Source: a virus
Length of the DNA: 10,234 nucleotides
Virus record (IMG/VR): IMGVR_UViG_3300035696_001163
Strand: one strand, 5' to 3'
Positions 111-10,234 of the stretch are shown in pieces. The translations under genes were made by a program, and so were the position numbers. The notes under the pieces were generated by a model, which saw only the letters and a list, made by a program, of their open reading frames with translations, did not search any database and was not told the DNA's origin. The stretch's first letter is position 1. The number at the start of each line of letters is the position of its first letter.

Positions 111-445
111 TTACCACCGCTCCGGCCAGTCGTGCAGGTTCTCTACCGCCTTGACCACCGCCAGCATGTTGCAATCGTAAAATCCCGATGAATTCAGGCA
201 GTTGACCTCGATGATCTTGTATTCCCCGGCGTCCGTCAACCCCACGTCCATCACAAATGCCTCGCACCCGACGCCGGATGGATGATCCGGACGCCGTTCT
301 GCTTGGCGTTGCGGTGTTGCCCGCCATTGCCGCCCGTGCAGAACGTCTGCACCACAAAGTCGCTTTTCGTCAACGAAAACAACAGCCTGCGCTCTTTCAT
401 AACCTGACCGACTTCCAAAACCTTTTGTATGCGCGTCGAATCCAA
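111..445 (-). pseudogene. ATP-grasp-like remnant split across two reading frames. The assignment is tentative.
   Basis: ORF 251..445 reads ..FSLTKSDFVVQTFCTGGNGGQHRNAKQNGVRIIHPASG. It ends at a TGA (253..251) that overlaps a GTG-ATG in the other frame. That second frame continues as MDVGLTDAGEYKIIEVNCLNSSGFYDCNMLAVVKAVENLHDWPERW, ending at 111. The vvQ.f and IEVN..SGF motifs resemble ATP-grasp C-terminal strands, but the expected roughly 60-80 residues between them are missing. The track's longer 111..536 ORF has a junk-like, GC-rich N-terminal part that overlaps the plus-strand paralog gene. Confidence 0.3.
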
Positions 446-632
446 ATGGACCTGTTACGAGGCTGCCGACGACGGCGGCACCACTTGCGAGCGCTTTGCC
501 CGGCTCTCGTGCGGTTGCTCTGTGCCCTTGGTCCAAGACCTAGAAATGGAGCCCGACCTGCCCTGCCCGCTGCACGAAGAGTCCCGCTTCATGGGGCATC
601 CGCCCGCCGTGGGCGAGACCCAACTCTACTGA
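429..632 (+). CDS. Small Cys-rich protein of 67 aa. It is paralog A of a tandem pair sharing a ..LSC.C..P...(14-15)..CPLHEESR.G motif.
   Basis: The ATG at 429 is the first start codon after an in-frame stop at 405-407. The protein motif is conserved with the adjacent ORF while the DNA diverges at synonymous third positions, including a TCC versus AGC serine codon switch. No Shine-Dalgarno sequence is visible. Confidence 0.55.
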   Translation: MRVESKWTCYEAADDGGTTCERFARLSCGCSVPLVQDLEMEPDLPCPLHEESRFMGHPPAVGETQLY

Positions 633-633
633 C

Positions 634-834
634 ATGAGAATCGTCCACATATTCTCGCACATCGAAGACGGCGTGCCCATGCTGTTCGCCCAGCTTTCCT
701 GCGCCTGCGTCTACCCCATCACTTCCGCGATGGTCTTCGACTGCGAAGAGACCGCATGCCCCCTCCACGAGGAGAGCCGTTACACTGGCGTGGCACCAGT
801 CCCCCCGGAGCCCGGCCCCTGCGAGGGCGTGTAA
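634..834 (+). CDS. Small Cys-rich protein of 66 aa. It is paralog B of the tandem pair (FAQLSCAC....CPLHEESRYTG).
   Basis: It starts 1 nt after the stop of paralog A. The motif is conserved with synonymous DNA divergence. No clear Shine-Dalgarno sequence; an alternative internal start lies at M16 (679). Confidence 0.5.
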   Translation: MRIVHIFSHIEDGVPMLFAQLSCACVYPITSAMVFDCEETACPLHEESRYTGVAPVPPEPGPCEGV

Positions 835-837
835 GGT

Positions 838-855
838 AGGCGTGATCTGACGCCT
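838..855 (+). terminator. Perfect 6-bp GC-rich hairpin at the convergence point of the plus-strand gene pair and the minus-strand tRNA array. The stem is AGGCGT/ACGCCT with loop GATCTG. It is a weak candidate terminator.
   Basis: The inverted repeat is visible directly in the sequence. The downstream tract CGTTCT is only moderately T-rich. Confidence 0.25.
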
Positions 856-872
856 CGTTCTAGTCAATGAGC

Positions 873-943
873 AGCCCCCGGTGGGATTCGAACCCACGAC
901 CTTCCCCGCGAAGGGGGACGCTCTACCGCTGAGCTACGGCCCC
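873..943 (-). tRNA. Degenerate tRNA-like gene, an Arg (UCG-like) relative and probably a pseudogene. It has no encoded CCA.
   Basis: Its reverse complement reads GGGGCCG TA GCTC AGCGGTA GAGC G TCCCC CTTCGC GGGGA AGGTC GTGGG TTCGAAT CCCAC CGGGGGC T. The D-arm and T-arm are good and identical to those of the tRNA-Arg(CCG) at 2767-2844. The anticodon loop has only 6 nt, and the acceptor stem carries three G.G mismatches (positions 2-4 against 69-71). Confidence 0.5.
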
Positions 944-1013
944 TAGCTGCGCATTTCAATCTTGCCCTCATTTTGAGCGCAATCGCACTCAAAAAGAGTA
1001 CAACAATCAACTT

Positions 1014-1089
1014 TGGCAGGGGCGGAGAGATTCGAACTCTCAACTTCGGTTTTGGAGACCGCTAGTTTACCAGTTTAGCCTACGCCCCT
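1014..1089 (-). tRNA. tRNA-Trp (anticodon CCA) with CCA encoded.
   Basis: Its reverse complement reads AGGGGCG TA ... CGGT CTCCAAA ACCG ... GAGAG TTCGAAT CTCTC CGCCCCT G CCA. This is close to E. coli tRNA-Trp in its acceptor stem, anticodon loop and T-arm. The D-arm pairing is looser than usual. Confidence 0.85.
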
Positions 1090-1686
1090 AATGTCCACAA
1101 TACCCGCATGAATCTCGTCATGGCAATTGCCGCAAACGAGGACACACTTGTCTAACTCCGCCCTTAACTTTTCCCAAGATCGCGTGCTCCCAGCCCCGCT
1201 AATCGCGAACTCCTTAGTCGCCGGGTCAACGTGGTGAAACTTGAGTGCTCGGATGCACCTGTTATAGCCGCAAATTTGACACTTCCCGCCTTTGTAGTCA
1301 ACCGCTTTTTGCTTCTGCTGTTGACGCCAGTACACGATACGTGTCACATCTTTTTTCGCAGCCGCTTGTTTTCGTCTTAAAGCGTCCGCAGCCTTGCACT
1401 TGATTGAACACCACTTGCGCCCTATCTTGACCGGAGTACCGCATTCATCACATTCGCCTTCCGGCCTTCGCTTTGGATACAGCCGATTGTTGTGCGCGGC
1501 TGCGCATCCGTGGCTACAAAATCGTCTCCGTCTGACAGTGCCGGGCTTTTCAGCCTCTTTCGGTAATATCGCTTTGCCGCAATGCCTACAGCGTGCTGGG
1601 TTCAACAAATACGCAGCGACCGCCGCTTCGTGTTCCTGTTTGCCCTTGATTAAGGCCGCCGCTTGTTTCTTGGGGTAGCGAATCAT
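1075..1686 (-). CDS. HNH homing endonuclease of 203 aa, with N-terminal CxxC zinc-finger-like modules.
   Basis: ATG at 1686. The C-terminus carries a classic HNH motif, CQICGY..LKFHHVDP..N..LVCGNCHDEIH. The last 15 nt including the TAA stop lie inside the 5' part of tRNA-Trp. The conserved 11-mer starts 5 nt upstream of the ATG. Confidence 0.8.
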   Translation of the reverse strand: MIRYPKKQAAALIKGKQEHEAAVAAYLLNPARCRHCGKAILPKEAEKPGTVRRRRFCSHGCAAAHNNRLYPKRRPEGECDECGTPVKIGRKWCSIKCKAADALRRKQAAAKKDVTRIVYWRQQQKQKAVDYKGGKCQICGYNRCIRALKFHHVDPATKEFAISGAGSTRSWEKLRAELDKCVLVCGNCHDEIHAGIVDIRGVG

Positions 1687-1691
1687 GTAGG

Positions 1692-1702
1692 TTTAATACT
1701 GC
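1692..1702 (-). promoter_or_regulatory. Conserved 11-mer GCAGTATTAAA (minus sense) 5 nt upstream of the HNH 1075..1686 ATG. An identical second copy lies at 2547..2557 upstream of HNH 2095..2541.
   Basis: There is an exact 11/11 match at equivalent positions: tRNA 3' end, then about 25-30 nt, then the motif, then 5 nt, then ATG. The two HNH proteins are otherwise unrelated at their N-termini. The AT-rich TATTAAA core looks like a phage -10 box. Confidence 0.45.
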
Positions 1703-1727
1703 AAAACCCAGAAACACTACCCCTTAA

Positions 1728-1817
1728 TGGCTGTGGGGGCAGGACTCGAACCTGCGACGGAGGTTACCCTCTCCCGATTAACAGTCAGGCCCCTGCTACC
1801 AACTCGGGTACCCCACA
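1728..1817 (-). tRNA. 90-nt type-II tRNA with a long variable arm. The scaffold is Tyr-like but the anticodon is GUU (Asn) and the discriminator is G73. CCA is encoded.
   Basis: Its reverse complement reads TGTGGGG TA CCC GAGTTGGTAGCA GGG G CCTGA CTGTTAA TCGGG AGAGGGTAACCTCCGTC GCAGG TTCGAGT CCTGC CCCCACA G CCA. Every stem pairs. The acceptor stem, the CCCGAG D-arm and the 3' CCCCCAC resemble bacterial tRNA-Tyr, but loop position 36 is U, which gives GUU. Confidence 0.75.
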
Positions 1818-1822
1818 AAAAT

Positions 1823-1897
1823 TGGCTGTGATCCTAGGATTCGAACCTAGACCTCCGATCTTAACAGGATCGCGCTCTGCCGTTAAGCTAGATCACA
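1823..1897 (-). tRNA. Canonical 75-nt tRNA-Asn (anticodon GUU) with CCA encoded.
   Basis: Its reverse complement reads TGTGATC TA GCTT AACGGCA GAGC G CGATC CTGTTAA GATCG GAGGT CTAGG TTCGAAT CCTAG GATCACA G CCA. It is a perfect cloverleaf. Confidence 0.9.
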
Positions 1898-2087
1898 ATT
1901 TCGTAAATCCCGCCTTGCAAAAGCCGCAATCGCAGCCCGGCACGTGCACGGTGGAACCCCGCTTCTCGGCCGCCCGCGCCCTCTCCGGGCAAACGCCGGG
2001 GTAGCCTTCCCACCTGTCGCAAGCCTTGCCAATTGGCTTGCCGCATTTCGGACACGGTATCGCAACGAGTTGATCTATCGTCATCAT
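1893..2087 (-). CDS. Possible small zinc-ribbon protein of 64 aa, MMTIDQLVAIPCPKCGKPIGKAC...CDCGFCKAGFTKL.
   Basis: ATG at 2087 lies 7 nt downstream of the stop of HNH gene 2095..2541. CxxC...CxC pairs are present. Its 3' end overlaps tRNA-Asn by 5 nt. The longer track ORF 1893..2324 overlaps the HNH gene and its upstream part is probably not coding. Confidence 0.35.
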   Translation of the reverse strand: MMTIDQLVAIPCPKCGKPIGKACDRWEGYPGVCPERARAAEKRGSTVHVPGCDCGFCKAGFTKL

Positions 2088-2094
2088 AATCTTT

Positions 2095-2541
2095 TCACTT
2101 GCGCTTTTTGAACCCCCAAGTGTCAGTCTGTGTATGGCAATTGGGGCAAACTTTCCACAAGTTCTCTCGACGATTATCCCGCCTATTTCCGTTCCTATGG
2201 TCGATTTGGAACCTAAGCGGTTTGCCATTCCAAATCGGGCCTTGTCCACAAGCTTCACAACGATTTTCAGTTCGGTCATAGTAACGGCGTTTCGCCACAG
2301 TTGTATGCGGCGAACCAAGCGCAAAAACCTGTTCTTCAGGCAACGAAAGCAGCAGTCCAGAGGCGGCGCAACCCAGAAAATGTTCCGTGTTCAATTCCAG
2401 TTTAGCGACCCACCGTTGAACCTGTCCGCTAGTTCGTACGTTGAGCTTACGACAAACTTCCGACCAAGAAAATGAAGTTCGTACAACTTCCGGTAACTCG
2501 GTCAAGTTCCACTTTCTCGGCTTGTGGAGGCCCTTACCCAT
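2095..2541 (-). CDS. HNH homing endonuclease of 148 aa.
   Basis: ATG at 2541. The HNH motif is CEACG..RFQIDHRNGNRRDNRRENLWKVCPNCH. The same 11-mer GCAGTATTAAA lies 5 nt upstream of the ATG. Within the cluster the gene sits directly downstream of a tRNA 3' end, as does HNH 1075..1686. Confidence 0.8.
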   Translation of the reverse strand: MGKGLHKPRKWNLTELPEVVRTSFSWSEVCRKLNVRTSGQVQRWVAKLELNTEHFLGCAASGLLLSLPEEQVFALGSPHTTVAKRRYYDRTENRCEACGQGPIWNGKPLRFQIDHRNGNRRDNRRENLWKVCPNCHTQTDTWGFKKRK

Positions 2542-2589
2542 GCCTATTTAATACTGCTTCCGCACACAAAACAGGCGTTTTACTATTTA

Positions 2590-2675
2590 TGGCTGGGAAG
2601 GAGAGACTTGAACTCTCAATGAGCCGAAGCTCGACGGGGTCAGAGCCCGTTGGGGTTACATTTTCCTACTTCCCA
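2590..2675 (-). tRNA. 86-nt tRNA-like gene of type-II architecture. Anticodon CUG (Gln), discriminator G73, CCA encoded, D-stem almost unpaired. Function is uncertain.
   Basis: Its reverse complement reads TGGGAAG TA GGAAAATGTAACCCC A ACGGG CTCTGAC CCCGT CGAGCTTCGGCTCATT GAGAG TTCAAGT CTCTC CTTCCCA G CCA. The acceptor stem, anticodon stem, T-arm and a 4-5 bp variable stem closed by a TTCG tetraloop are all good. The D-arm offers only 2-3 possible pairs. Confidence 0.5.
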
Positions 2676-2678
2676 AAC

Positions 2679-2756
2679 TGGCACCCACGGCAGGGTTCGA
2701 ACCTGCGACCTCCTGATTCGTAGTCAGGCGCTCTGGTTCCGCTGAGCTACGCGGGC
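2679..2756 (-). tRNA. 78-nt tRNA-Arg (anticodon ACG) with CCA encoded.
   Basis: Its reverse complement reads GCCCGCG TA GCTC AGCGGAACCA GAGC G CCTGA CTACGAA TCAGG AGGTC GCAGG TTCGAAC CCTGC CGTGGGT G CCA. The acceptor stem includes two G.U pairs. Confidence 0.85.
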
Positions 2757-2766
2757 GTAAAATTTA

Positions 2767-2844
2767 TGGCGACCCCGGTGGGATTCGAACCCACGACCTC
2801 TGGTTCCGGAGACCAGCGCTCTAATTCCGCTGAGCTACGGGGTC
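2767..2844 (-). tRNA. 78-nt tRNA-Arg (anticodon CCG) with CCA encoded.
   Basis: Its reverse complement reads GACCCCG TA GCTC AGCGGAATTA GAGC G CTGGT CTCCGGA ACCAG AGGTC GTGGG TTCGAAT CCCAC CGGGGTC G CCA. The anticodon loop matches that of E. coli Arg-CCG. Confidence 0.9.
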
Positions 2845-2857
2845 CCTACACAAAACT

Positions 2858-2934
2858 TGGGGTGAGGGAGGGGACTCGAACCCCCAACTACAGGAGCCAC
2901 AATCCTGCGTTCTACCAATTGAACTACCCTCACC
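2858..2934 (-). tRNA. tRNA-His (anticodon GUG) with a genome-encoded G-1 paired to C73. CCA is encoded.
   Basis: Its reverse complement reads G GTGAGGG TA GTTC AATTGGTA GAAC G CAGGA TTGTGGC TCCTG TAGTT GGGGG TTCGAGT CCCCT CCCTCAC C CCA. The extra 5' G opposite C73 is the hallmark of His. Confidence 0.9.
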
Positions 2935-5114: not shown

Positions 5115-5483
5115 TTAAATCCTCATCATTTCTGCACATTTTCTGGCGTTGTAATCTTCCCGCTGTTTGCGGGACTCTTCTTCGAACGGCCGCAACAAAT
5201 CGTCCACCACTTCTTGCTTCCCCCGGAGCCGCTGAATCTGGGAGTCTAGTTCTCGTAGCTTTTTCTCGTTATCGTGGTCATCGGTGATTCCTCCGGAAAA
5301 GCCGCAATTGAGGCTGCACTCTTCTTTGTGCAACCTATGCATCTGTTCCGTCAAGGTCGAACGTAGCCCCAATAGCGTTGGAAGAATACGGGCTAGAAGC
5401 GCATTCGAAGGCACGTATTTGAACTGGTCGCTCATTGGTAGATCACCTGTCCGAAAGGTCTTTTCCGCACCCACTTGATCCAC
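5115..5483 (-). CDS. Hypothetical protein. The likely start is ATG 5435, giving 106 aa (MSDQFKYVPSN...).
   Basis: ATG 5435..5433 forms an ATGA overlap with the TGA stop of the upstream HNH gene. The track start at 5483 would overlap the HNH gene by 52 nt. Confidence 0.55.
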   Translation of the reverse strand: MDQVGAEKTFRTGDLPMSDQFKYVPSNALLARILPTLLGLRSTLTEQMHRLHKEECSLNCGFSGGITDDHDNEKKLRELDSQIQRLRGKQEVVDDLLRPFEEESRKQREDYNARKCAEMMRI

Positions 5484-5761
5484 TTTTGGACCTCGGGGTG
5501 CGCTTTCAGCTTCTCTATCGTATTATACTCCTGTTCCAACTCCTTCTCGGTGAAAAGTGAGTGCAACTGGCTATGGCATGGGCGACAGGTATCAGCTTGC
5601 TTGTGCCGTTCATTCCCTAAGTCTCGTTTGATGCGCTTGTTGTGCCGCATGCGGGGCACGAGATGGTGTCCGGTGAGCGCCATATTCCCTCGCTCGCAAA
5701 GCTCACATGTGCCAATGACGGAATTAGCTGGTACTTTCATCCGTGGATTCCCATTCCACAT
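5432..5761 (-). CDS. Small HNH endonuclease of 109 aa.
   Basis: ATG at 5761. The HNH motif is CELCE...LTGHHLVPR...N...CRPCHSQLH. Confidence 0.75.
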   Translation of the reverse strand: MWNGNPRMKVPANSVIGTCELCERGNMALTGHHLVPRMRHNKRIKRDLGNERHKQADTCRPCHSQLHSLFTEKELEQEYNTIEKLKAHPEVQKWIKWVRKRPFGQVIYQ

Positions 5762-5999
5762 CTACGGGTAGACCGGGAGCAAGACGGTCTGCATTTGAGC
5801 AAGCCTCAACTCCGTTCATTAAAATATCGTAATGTTCGGCACAAACGTAAAGATGCCTTCCGTCCGTTAGAGTAATAAAATCAATAGCGGGGCGACCACA
5901 GGTTTCCTCCGTTGGAGCGGCGAACGTAATCGGGAAACCGCGACAAGAGTCGAGCACTTCGCATTCATGCCTCATAAAAAGGCCCAGTACTCGTCCCAA
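5724..5999 (-). CDS. Small Cys protein. It is paralog 2 of a tandem pair sharing a CG.PA.DFI...LY.CA.H.D motif. The likely start is ATG 5975, giving 83 aa.
   Basis: ATG 5975..5973 forms an ATGA overlap with the upstream paralog's stop. The motif MR..C..L...AP..E..CG.PAIDFI...LYVCAEHYD is shared with gene 5972..6157. Confidence 0.55.
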   Translation of the reverse strand: MGRVLGLFMRHECEVLDSCRGFPITFAAPTEETCGRPAIDFITLTDGRHLYVCAEHYDILMNGVEACSNADRLAPGLPVDVEWESTDESTS

Positions 6000-6157
6000 T
6001 GCTTGGCGCAGAGGTAGATTTTGTCCGTATCCCCGTTTTTACGCACCCATGGTATAAAGTCCACGGCGGGAAGTCCACACAAGGAGTCTTCGTCAGCTTC
6101 CGGGGCAAGCATACACCCCGCTGTAAAGTCCCTTAACGCCATACAGGTACCTCTCAT
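5972..6157 (-). CDS. Small Cys protein of 61 aa. It is paralog 1 of the tandem pair (..CGLPAVDFI...IYLCAKHWDEY).
   Basis: ATG 6157 forms an ATGA overlap with the stop of the nucleotidyltransferase gene. Paralogy is visible at protein level. Confidence 0.55.
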   Translation of the reverse strand: MRGTCMALRDFTAGCMLAPEADEDSLCGLPAVDFIPWVRKNGDTDKIYLCAKHWDEYWAFL

Positions 6158-8721: not shown

Positions 8722-10234
8722 TTAGTTACCTACTTTTGCGGGCTTCGCTTGGATATTGCTCAGGATAGTCTCCAAGGCGGTTCCCTTGAACAACCTTTCC
8801 AGTGAGGTTCCAAGTCCAGTCTGTTCATGCAAAGCGAGCGGGGCAACGGCGGTAGCCAGCTTGGTAGCAAACTCCGTCTGTCCCAGCGTGAGCATGGCGG
8901 CTATGAGGTCAGGCGTAATCGCCTTGATCTTCGCCTCGAAGAACTCGACACGCTTCTCCTCGACTGTCAACGTGTAGTCTTCGCCAGCCTTACGACGGTT
9001 TAGCTCGGCTGTGGCAACTGCATCATGCAGCTTTTGCTGGTCGGCTTCGGCCGTCAAGCTGCTGACCGTTTCGGCGATCTCCGCTTGCAACTTCTCCATG
9101 GCTACGTCGGCCCGCTTGGCGTTCAGTTCGGCTTCCAGTTCAAGCTTCTTGATTGCCAAGTCGTTCTCCAGTACCGCTGCTTGCTCCTGAACTTCGACTG
9201 TACGCTTGGTAATGTCGAGGTTCTGCTCGGCGGCGGACAGGGAGATAACGCCTTCGACTGCCTTCTGCTGGGCATTCTTGAGCATCGTGGAGATACGTTC
9301 ATCGGCGATCTTGACATCCAATACTTCAACGTCATAGACCTCCATGCCGTTCTCCGGGAACGGATGAGCCCGACGCTTCCCATCCACCTTCGTGCCGAGG
9401 ATAGTGTCACGGACCTGAGCGGTTGAATCCTCGATGAATTCCTTGATCGACAACTTCTTGACCGCACCTTTGAGAAGTGACCGCATGTGGTCGCACAGGA
9501 ATTTAACGTAGTTCTCGACGGAAAACCACTTGTCCTGAGCTTCCCGAAGGAAGTTAACGCGGTAGGACAACTTTATCTCCACGTTCACAAGGTCTTTCGT
9601 TTCGACCCGGACGATGTCGGATACGACGTTGTTGTCTACGCGCAAGTACACGTCGTGAATCAACTTGTCGGTCGTCTTCGGCTTTCCGGTCGAAAGTTCA
9701 AGAACGGCGAGCGTTTCGTCGTACTTCAGCAGGATGGTTGCCGGTCCAACTACTACACGCCGCCCACCCTTTTTGTCAACGATTTGAACGGCGTAGCCGA
9801 CATAAGGACTGATAGTCGGCACCCCATCGTACTTCGTATTCAGGGTAAGCATCGGCGGTGGGGTGAACTGCGTGCCCCGGTTCAGCTTATCGCCTTCGAA
9901 TGACGCACTGGCGGCTAGTGCTCGACTTCCCGCTGTGCCTCGATTAACGGAGCGGAGAACATCCACGGAAGCTGCCTTAACGGTAGCGTCATAGACATAG
10001 TTGTCGGCATCATTTGCCAGTGCCCGAATGCTGTCATTGAATGCCAATGCTTCGGTGTTACCCGGATACCACAGGCTAACAGTCTTGGCATCCAGCACGC
10101 GGCGGATGATGACTTGAAAACGCGGATCGGGCAGGAAAATCTGTGGACCTTCCACGGTCTCCACATCGCCTATGTTCTTGTCGAGAACATAGCGGCCTTC
10201 GCCCGTGGGGATCGCAATTCCGTAGTAGCGCTGG
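8722..10234 (-). CDS. Large SPFH/band-7-like protein with a beta-rich N-terminal region and a long C-terminal coiled coil. The architecture is flotillin-like or vault-shoulder-like. The CDS is 5'-partial.
   Basis: The frame is open through the right edge; the track's M at 10164 is a GTG inside a longer open frame. An SPFH-like core (..VETKDLVNVEIKLSYRVNF..VYDVEVLDVKIADERISTMLKNAQ) is followed by about 150 aa of heptad-like E/A/K/L-rich sequence. TAA at 8724..8722. Confidence 0.7.
   Translation of the reverse strand, partial: QRYYGIAIPTGEGRYVLDKNIGDVETVEGPQIFLPDPRFQVIIRRVLDAKTVSLWYPGNTEALAFNDSIRALANDADNYVYDATVKAASVDVLRSVNRGTAGSRALAASASFEGDKLNRGTQFTPPPMLTLNTKYDGVPTISPYVGYAVQIVDKKGGRRVVVGPATILLKYDETLAVLELSTGKPKTTDKLIHDVYLRVDNNVVSDIVRVETKDLVNVEIKLSYRVNFLREAQDKWFSVENYVKFLCDHMRSLLKGAVKKLSIKEFIEDSTAQVRDTILGTKVDGKRRAHPFPENGMEVYDVEVLDVKIADERISTMLKNAQQKAVEGVISLSAAEQNLDITKRTVEVQEQAAVLENDLAIKKLELEAELNAKRADVAMEKLQAEIAETVSSLTAEADQQKLHDAVATAELNRRKAGEDYTLTVEEKRVEFFEAKIKAITPDLIAAMLTLGQTEFATKLATAVAPLALHEQTGLGTSLERLFKGTALETILSNIQAKPAKVGN

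Follow-up and report, generated by a model that had tools for sequence, protein, structure and literature searches.

A tandem gene pair beside a tRNA array represents an undescribed family of small phage proteins with a probable zinc site

Mu Com and the P2 Ogr/P4 Delta proteins are phage proteins of 60-75 amino acids (aa) arranged around one Cys-rich zinc site; they carry C4 fingers for binding RNA or RNA polymerase and lack a strong acidic charge. A second class of small phage proteins, comprising anti-restriction proteins, anti-CRISPR proteins and antitoxin-type inhibitors such as T4 Dmd, consists of acidic, phage-encoded inhibitors of host proteins. The DNA gyrase inhibitor YacG (PF03884; PDB 1LV3 and 4TMA) is likewise acidic, measures about 65 aa and contains a single zinc site. 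Here we describe two adjacent open reading frames, ORF A and ORF B, located in a 10,234-nucleotide (nt) stretch of viral DNA (IMG/VR record IMGVR_UViG_3300035696_001163), which is referred to in its full length as the window. A and B are members of a phage protein family that has not been described before and whose small proteins probably bind zinc. They resemble Com and Ogr/Delta in size and in the single Cys-rich site, but no relationship in sequence or fold was detected, and they differ in their acidity, as all 37 members examined have an isoelectric point (pI) of 4.05-4.89 and a net charge of -4 to -14. With the small acidic inhibitors they share the size class, the acidity and an accessory-gene behaviour that includes variable copy number and exchange between related phages, yet the family libraries and PDB sequences searched gave no homology to any of them, and the conserved metal site of the family is unusual for that class.

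ORF A (429..632, plus strand) encodes 67 aa and ORF B (634..834, plus strand) encodes 66 aa, both with a pI of 4.5. The putative zinc ligands of A are C28 (codon at 510-512), C30 (516-518), C46 (564-566) and H49 (573-575), followed by the invariant E50; the corresponding residues of B are C23 (700-702), C25 (706-708), C42 (757-759) and H45 (766-768), followed by the invariant E46. A preliminary description of the window had listed both frames as its only plus-strand genes and as paralogues sharing a Cys-containing motif. Both frames were confirmed at these positions, and they are the sole credible plus-strand genes, as the tRNA genes and every family-supported ORF of the window lie on the minus strand. 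The paralogy is supported by a BLASTP match between the two proteins (E = 2e-9, 17/39 residues identical over FA[RQ]LSC[GA]C...CPLHEESR[FY].G), and the reported TCC/AGC serine codon swap is indeed present within the CPLHEESR block. The motif spacing, originally given as 14-15 residues, has to be corrected to 15 residues in A and 16 in B between the second and third Cys, or to 12-13 when counted from the Pro to the third Cys. A and B had also been described as differing mainly at third codon positions, which applies within the two motif blocks only; over the full alignment, where amino-acid identity is 37% and synonymous divergence (dS) is saturated, the differences are distributed 27/29/40 over the three codon positions. 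Purifying selection, which had been deduced from this comparison, holds, with its proof coming from the orthologues considered below. The lack of a Shine-Dalgarno sequence was observed for both starts, but is not distinctive, given that most minus-strand genes of the window lack one as well. At 37% identity, A and B resemble other family proteins at least as closely as they resemble each other, which points to an old duplication or to the gain of one copy by recombination.

The family was defined by searches of proteins and contigs, in which loci are referred to by L numbers and proteins by P numbers. An exhaustive search with a four-protein profile against all 1.84 billion representative proteins yielded 16 hits, corresponding to about 13 clusters after the removal of three long proteins (P0006, P0011 and P0012) that were rejected as spurious, being repeat proteins without the Cys motif. 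A word-indexed search with a 17-sequence profile yielded 31 proteins, and scans of viral and metagenome contigs added L003-L005 and L017-L035, with 19 further metagenome loci coming from the pattern scan. Members are 48-90 aa long, except for P0005, a 134-aa frameshifted fusion of the pair; where they have been named they are called 'hypothetical', and none has a Pfam domain. In an alignment of 30 sequences (26-85% identity), the residues L26, C28, C30, C46, H49 and E50 (A numbering) show no variation and R53 almost none, and the same result is obtained with B as the reference. The metal-binding-type signature that had been suggested for the pair is borne out by this alignment, the four putative ligand positions of A and of B being invariant in 29-30 members. 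The four residues are placed in two short knuckles, in the manner of a Cys3His mini-protein, and the family signature C-x-C...(15-17)...C-P-[LT]-H-E reads as a Cys3His metal site, a residue pattern from which we infer that the proteins probably bind zinc.

Structural models of both proteins, generated by AlphaFold2 with the family alignment, share their topology and reach a predicted local distance difference test score (pLDDT) of 87.1 for A and 87.8 for B. The predicted fold comprises a long β-hairpin and a third strand together with short helices, and ends in a tail of low confidence; in the model of A, the strands span residues 2-12, 18-26 and 31-33, and a helix spans residues 52-55. About ten members (P0008, P0014-P0016, P0018, P0031-P0033, P0036 and the protein encoded at 8001-8210 of L003) carry an additional Pro-rich linker and an acidic tail, DDDDW.EP[HN], which A and B of the window lack. 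Members occur exclusively in uncultivated phages of soil and peat, part of which have genes in common with huge phages; L011, L013 and L027, the last a contig of 133 kb, stem from peat and soil samples. The family has no known relative by sequence or structure. Neither the two window proteins nor any of the 30 members gave a hit in Pfam, PHROGs, NCBIfam or PADLOC, with 0/30 members matching a PADLOC defence-system model at E <= 1. The sequences of the PDB gave no match at E <= 10, tblastn of three family members against 50,697 GenBank phage records gave noise or nothing, and a motif-pattern scan of the GTDB species-representative bacterial and archaeal genomes gave no relative. A literature search on the motif string CPLHE returned nothing relevant. 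Taken by itself, the description of A and B as genes of a new family with a zinc-knuckle motif is one that we hold with high confidence.

The coding character of both frames is best seen in comparison with L001, a 32.7-kb syntenic contig that holds both orthologues at 85% identity each. Between the window and L001, third positions account for 17/28 differences in A and 19/34 in B, or for 11/18 in an ungapped comparison of B restricted to 634-790. The ratio of non-synonymous to synonymous divergence (dN/dS) is 0.20 for A and 0.20 for B, and 0.14 in the conserved part of B, whereas the other frames show ratios of 0.4-2 and contain stops. The ratio is 0.19 for A compared to L017, and it ranges over 0.03-0.24 in 13 orthologue comparisons across the family; between L023 and L026, 14/17 differences fall at third positions and 59/62 residues are identical. 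Furthermore, L002, a 905-bp contig obtained independently from a different sample, matches positions 83-987 of the window at 99.9% identity, so the local arrangement is no assembly artefact. A and B are real, selected protein-coding genes. The pair as such is carried only by the window (together with L002), L001 and L010, the copy number in the family being one or two. In L010 (3631-4035), both copies contain indels just ahead of CPLHE, which give rise to the fused 134-aa P0005; the motif can be read intact in a different frame, and either an assembly error or a recent pseudogenisation may have produced this state.

The opposite view would take A and B as chance frames in a GC-rich spacer within the minus-strand pre-tRNA transcript, or would regard the minus-strand ORFs 111-536 and 589-897 as the real genes. 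It can draw on the fact that long open frames arise on both strands of GC-rich DNA, and on the missing Shine-Dalgarno sequence, promoter call and terminator call. Against it stand the low dN/dS of the plus frames (0.14-0.20) compared to that of the other frames with their stops, the protein signature, which persists at identities as low as about 30% across three phage lineages and also where tRNA genes are lacking, and the absence of any Rfam match to an RNA family inside 429-834. We regard this view as effectively refuted. The minus-strand ORF 111-536 itself was rejected as a gene, as it represents a 141-aa read-through across two abutting gene remnants and has no counterpart in L001. One remnant is the N-terminal 64 aa of an RF-1/GGQ (ArfB-like) protein (251-445, minus strand; PHROG 3122, E = 7e-11), and the other comprises the last ~50 aa of an R2K-clade ATP-grasp protein (111-~270, minus strand; PF14243). 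The counterpart of 111-445 in L001 consists of a tRNA-Lys(CTT) gene and a full ATP-grasp region that includes the N-terminal half, and the remnant junction in the window is confirmed by L002. The preliminary description would have yielded to a lack of homologues combined with conservation of the minus-strand frame 111..536 in related genomes; homologues exist, and that frame is not the conserved one.

A single base separates the two genes (TGA-C-ATG), and L001 has the identical junction. With the start of B lying 1 nt past the stop of A, translational coupling of B to A is plausible. Upstream of the pair, a 13-nt leader, TCCAAAACCTTTT (414..426, plus strand), ends 2 nt ahead of the ATG of ORF A. 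Its pattern, TYCAAAMCCYYTT, occurs once per locus and directly 5' of the family gene in eight loci (the window, L001, L002, L003, L010, L017, L029 and L030), and is absent elsewhere across the 35 fetched loci. L003 contains the leader although its protein is only ~37% identical to A. The leader could be a promoter, an operator or a translation signal. Downstream of the pair, a 6-bp GC-rich hairpin (AGGCGU/ACGCCU; 838..855, plus strand) begins 3 nt past the stop of ORF B, with a minimum free energy of -10.4 kcal/mol and a z-score of -2.1. It has no U-tract and was not called in the terminator scan; its stem is the same in L010, where the loop differs, and L001 has no clear equivalent. The hairpin might possibly act as a weak terminator or as a structure protecting the 3' end. 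Scans for sigma-70 promoters and intrinsic terminators found nothing usable on the plus strand of the window.

Across the family, the gene is found in two genomic settings. In the lineage of the window, it is a plus-strand gene inside a minus-strand tRNA array (L001, L003, L007, L008/9, L010-L014, L017-L030 and L034). A tRNA-Lys(CTT) gene ends 19-26 nt ahead of the ATG in at least ten distinct protein variants, and a tRNA-Asn(GTT) or tRNA-Gln(CTG) gene begins 2-13 nt past the stop in several loci. In L008/9, a decayed tRNA-Lys-like remnant is still located at the upstream place, and the window has lost the tRNA-Lys at this slot, yet both of its genes are intact. Such a placement of a protein gene, antisense between tRNA genes and with almost no spare DNA on either side, is unusual. 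It raises the question of how transcription, termination and timing of the gene relate to those of a tRNA operon, a type of unit that many now see as a counter-defence device. The second setting, an operon of terminase, portal and capsid genes, is found in two other phage lineages. In phages of ~95 kb, the gene is located between the large terminase gene and an SU10-type portal gene (L004-L006 and L031-L035). In L015/16, its start overlaps the stop of a preceding 468-aa gene, and the next gene is a weak match to a major head protein. The genes of this second setting are co-oriented with their neighbours and, in several loci, abut or overlap them.

In the preliminary description, the pair was placed in a GC-rich segment and interpreted as an acquired, moron-like module. 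The compositional shift is confirmed: the 406-nt segment has a GC content of 0.638 compared to the window mean of 0.535, about 3 standard deviations above it, which places the segment at rank 10 of 983 sliding 406-nt windows, and GC at third codon positions is 0.79 and 0.83 in the two genes. The block 410-770 is 90.6% identical to L001, compared to 71-82% in the other shared segments; dS to L001, the nearest relative, amounts to 0.43 for A and 0.57 for B, whereas the seven flanking genes range from 1.0 up to saturation, a 2-4-fold reduction in the block. The left edge of the shared block is sharp, at ~410, and the block starts with the 13-nt leader. The background GC content of L001 and L010 is 0.58, as opposed to 0.535 in the window. 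In view of the GC shift, the low dS relative to the flanks and the sharp edge, the simplest reading would be a recent recombinational exchange of a cassette of leader, A and B between related phages that differ in GC content. Alternatively, the low dS may reflect a constraint on synonymous sites imposed by codon bias or by the antisense context.

With phage morons, the A/B block shares the compositional shift, the orientation opposite to its neighbours and the organization as a self-contained unit with its own leader. It differs from them in its conserved tRNA slot, in having no recognizable promoter/terminator pair and in showing no sign of host origin. The same slot of the tRNA array is occupied in at least ten diverged variants, so the distribution is not sporadic and the block is no sporadic moron. 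It also does not look host-derived, as the motif scan of species-representative genomes gave no sign of a host origin. The idea of an acquired module therefore stands as far as the GC shift, the low dS to L001 and the sharp left edge are concerned, but not with respect to the slot, which is an old residence of the gene, or to a host source.

As to function, we tentatively favour a zinc-stabilised protein-binding inhibitor that serves in host takeover or anti-defence, a reading to which we give somewhat less than even probability. Both roles had been named as possible in the preliminary description, and the uniform acidity of the family fits an inhibitor of this kind. That acidity is too high for a zinc finger of the nucleic-acid-binding type, no catalytic room is left beyond the four-ligand centre, and the four putative ligands are all side chains of the protein; we therefore favour an inhibitor. 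The library and PDB searches gave no match to a catalytic or nucleic-acid-binding family. We postulate that one zinc ion would probably pin the fold, held by the C-x-C at the end of strand 2 and the C-P-L-H about 15 residues further on. Past the His, the chain would continue with the invariant Glu and the conserved E-x-R-[FYW] into the variable, disordered tail. Both genes would be read from the plus strand, head-on to the tRNA genes and other genes around them, with the leader ahead of A and with B probably coupled translationally to A. Acting as a homodimer or as an A/B heterodimer, the protein would most likely bind and block a protein partner, probably one of the host. Several points weigh against this proposal. 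The operon setting with terminase, portal and major head protein fits morphogenesis at least as well, acidity and small size are weak and non-specific indicators, and zinc binding is read from the residue pattern only. If true, the proposal would add to phage biology a new, confidently foldable mini-protein family with a conserved metal site, soluble in appearance and readily synthesised; if A and B are ordinary accessory ORFans, small families of which are common in phages, their value would lie in annotation and in a new domain-of-unknown-function entry.

The terminase/portal setting leads to the alternative that the protein is an accessory of virion assembly or packaging, such as a chaperone, a minor head component or a packaged internal protein, and that its gene moved into the tRNA array in the lineage of the window. 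The co-oriented, abutting or overlapping arrangement in the ~95-kb phages agrees with such a role, as do the start overlapping the 468-aa gene and the weak major-head-protein match in L015/L016. We nevertheless consider it unlikely, since most variants lie far from structural genes, on the opposite strand in a neighbourhood of tRNA, HNH and RNA-repair genes, since no PHROG or structural match to head, portal or packaging proteins was found, and since the copy number varies between one and two. The tRNA neighbourhood, in turn, could reflect a function within the array itself. The protein might protect or assist counter-defence tRNAs, for example by blocking a host anticodon nuclease directed against tRNA-Lys, or its head-on transcription might regulate or partition the tRNA operon, with the flanking antisense tRNAs serving as promoter, terminator or processing signals. 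Consistent with this are the antisense position between minus-strand tRNA genes, the closely spaced tRNA-Lys(CTT) ahead of the ATG and tRNA-Asn or tRNA-Gln past the stop, the remnant that persists in L008/L009, and the translation and RNA-repair neighbours (RlaP, the RF-1 fragment and the R2K ATP-grasp protein). Phage tRNAs are documented as evading tRNA-cleaving defences (PMC10264068, PMC11555353). A function in the array is still quite doubtful, as the family also occurs in phages without nearby tRNA genes, the window retains both genes after the loss of its tRNA-Lys, the linkage may have been inherited as synteny in a single lineage, and the plus strand of the window showed no sigma-70-like promoter. 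A more specific combination, which we judge improbable, would make the protein a companion of a counter-defence tRNA array, namely a zinc-stabilised protein that inhibits a host nuclease acting on tRNAs (for instance on tRNA-Lys). Its mRNA would be produced head-on within the array and be bounded or processed by the antisense 'mirror' tRNA structures 19-26 nt upstream and 2-13 nt downstream. If this were true, it would constitute a tRNA-punctuated antisense gene in a phage.

The inhibitor reading also invites comparison with YacG, whose zinc-finger body sits on GyrB and whose acidic, Trp-bearing tail reaches GyrA. About ten members, or one third of the family, close with D-D-D-D-W-x-E-P-[HN], a tail similar to the S-D-D-W-S-E-E-P of YacG, and in both cases size and acidity are similar and 15 residues lie between the two metal knuckles. 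A conserved aromatic residue is located 8 residues past the third ligand, followed by a disordered tail, and an hhalign comparison with a single YacG sequence (confirmed against PDB 4TMA and 1LV3) sets this aromatic, F54 in A, opposite Trp40. The roles of Trp40 and Trp59 of YacG have been described (PMC4083091; PMC10886550). At the place of Trp40, the family has F, Y or W at equivalent spacing, and the DDW.EP tail is missing from A and B. Membership in YacG (PF03884) was rejected: 0/30 members match PF03884 at E <= 1, the family aligned to a 12-sequence YacG profile reaches an hhalign probability of 13% with only 13 tail columns aligned, and the family shows C-x-C...(15-17)...C-x-x-H in place of the C4 finger CxxC...CxxxC. 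The fold is not superposable on 1LV3 or on chain I of 4TMA. A YacG-like inhibition of gyrase thus appears very improbable, and we retain YacG as a remote functional analogy for the tail-bearing relatives only.

HNH (ββα-metal) endonucleases, which are abundant beside these genes, likewise combine a β-hairpin and a following helix with Cys knuckles, and the local string C-P-x-x-H of the family is reminiscent of the C-P-N-C-H in the HNH proteins that the window itself encodes. In contrast to them, the family has no catalytic His/Asn core (DH..N), and 55-70 aa are too short for such an enzyme. The idea of an HNH fragment was rejected, with 0/30 members matching the Pfam HNH models at E <= 1 and the catalytic core absent; the true HNH genes of the window score 1e-6 to 1e-11.

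The window as a whole is phage-like, with seven tRNA genes, all on the minus strand, three HNH endonuclease genes, a gene for an RlaP-type nucleotidyltransferase and a gene for a vault-shoulder protein resembling the major vault protein (MVP). No close relative of the window was found among GenBank phages, the sole match being a tRNA-Arg. The vault protein (8722-10164, minus strand; 480 aa) comprises vault-repeat and MVP-shoulder domains (PF17795, PF11978). Among GenBank phages, it has relatives only in the uncultured huge phages LR756500, LR756501 and LR756503 (462-735 kb), to which it is 38% identical across 99% of its length, and this suggests that the window derives from a large or huge soil phage.

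The tRNA set of the window (1014-2933, minus strand) and of the related loci is restricted and redundant, comprising Lys, Asn, Gln, Arg, His and Trp, often in several copies; in addition, two loci hold a Thr gene, and L024 has one Asp call. Next to this set lie genes for RlaP, RF-1-like and ATP-grasp proteins. The set looks more like a decoy or replacement against tRNA-cleaving defences (compare PMC10264068 and PMC11555353) than like codon supplementation. The genes for tRNA-Asn(GUU) (1731-1817, minus strand) and tRNA-Gln(CUG) (2593-2675, minus strand) are 83-90 nt long and contain a stem-loop of 12-14 nt in the variable region. Such a long variable arm is class-II-like; among bacterial tRNAs, those for Leu, Ser and Tyr are normally the only ones to have it. 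A tRNA-Asn gene of normal length adjoins at 1826-1897. The same long-arm genes are found in relatives (L011 at 5365-5451, L013 at 1586-1672, and others), and over-long genes for tRNA-Arg(ACG), tRNA-Lys(UUU), tRNA-His and tRNA-Trp recur across the related loci. Closer to the A/B pair, a decayed tRNA-Arg(UCG)-like element (866-944, minus strand) lies 31 nt past ORF B. It matches the Rfam tRNA model with 47.6 bits over model positions 5-66 only and has no ARAGORN call; its acceptor stem is unpaired, and its anticodon stem-loop carries a 1-nt deletion.

The window contains a second tandem pair of paralogous genes for small, acidic, Cys-containing proteins (5724-5999 and 5972-6157, both on the minus strand), which have the common motif CG.PA[IV]DFI...Y[VL]CA[EK]H[YW]D (BLASTP E = 2e-8) and were assigned to no family. 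Two of the HNH genes (1075-1686 and 2095-2541) are preceded by a common string, GCAGTATTAAA, at ~1694-1704 and ~2549-2559 on the minus strand. The string ends 7 nt ahead of the ATG of the HNH gene and could be a shared promoter, a regulatory element or a homing-related element.
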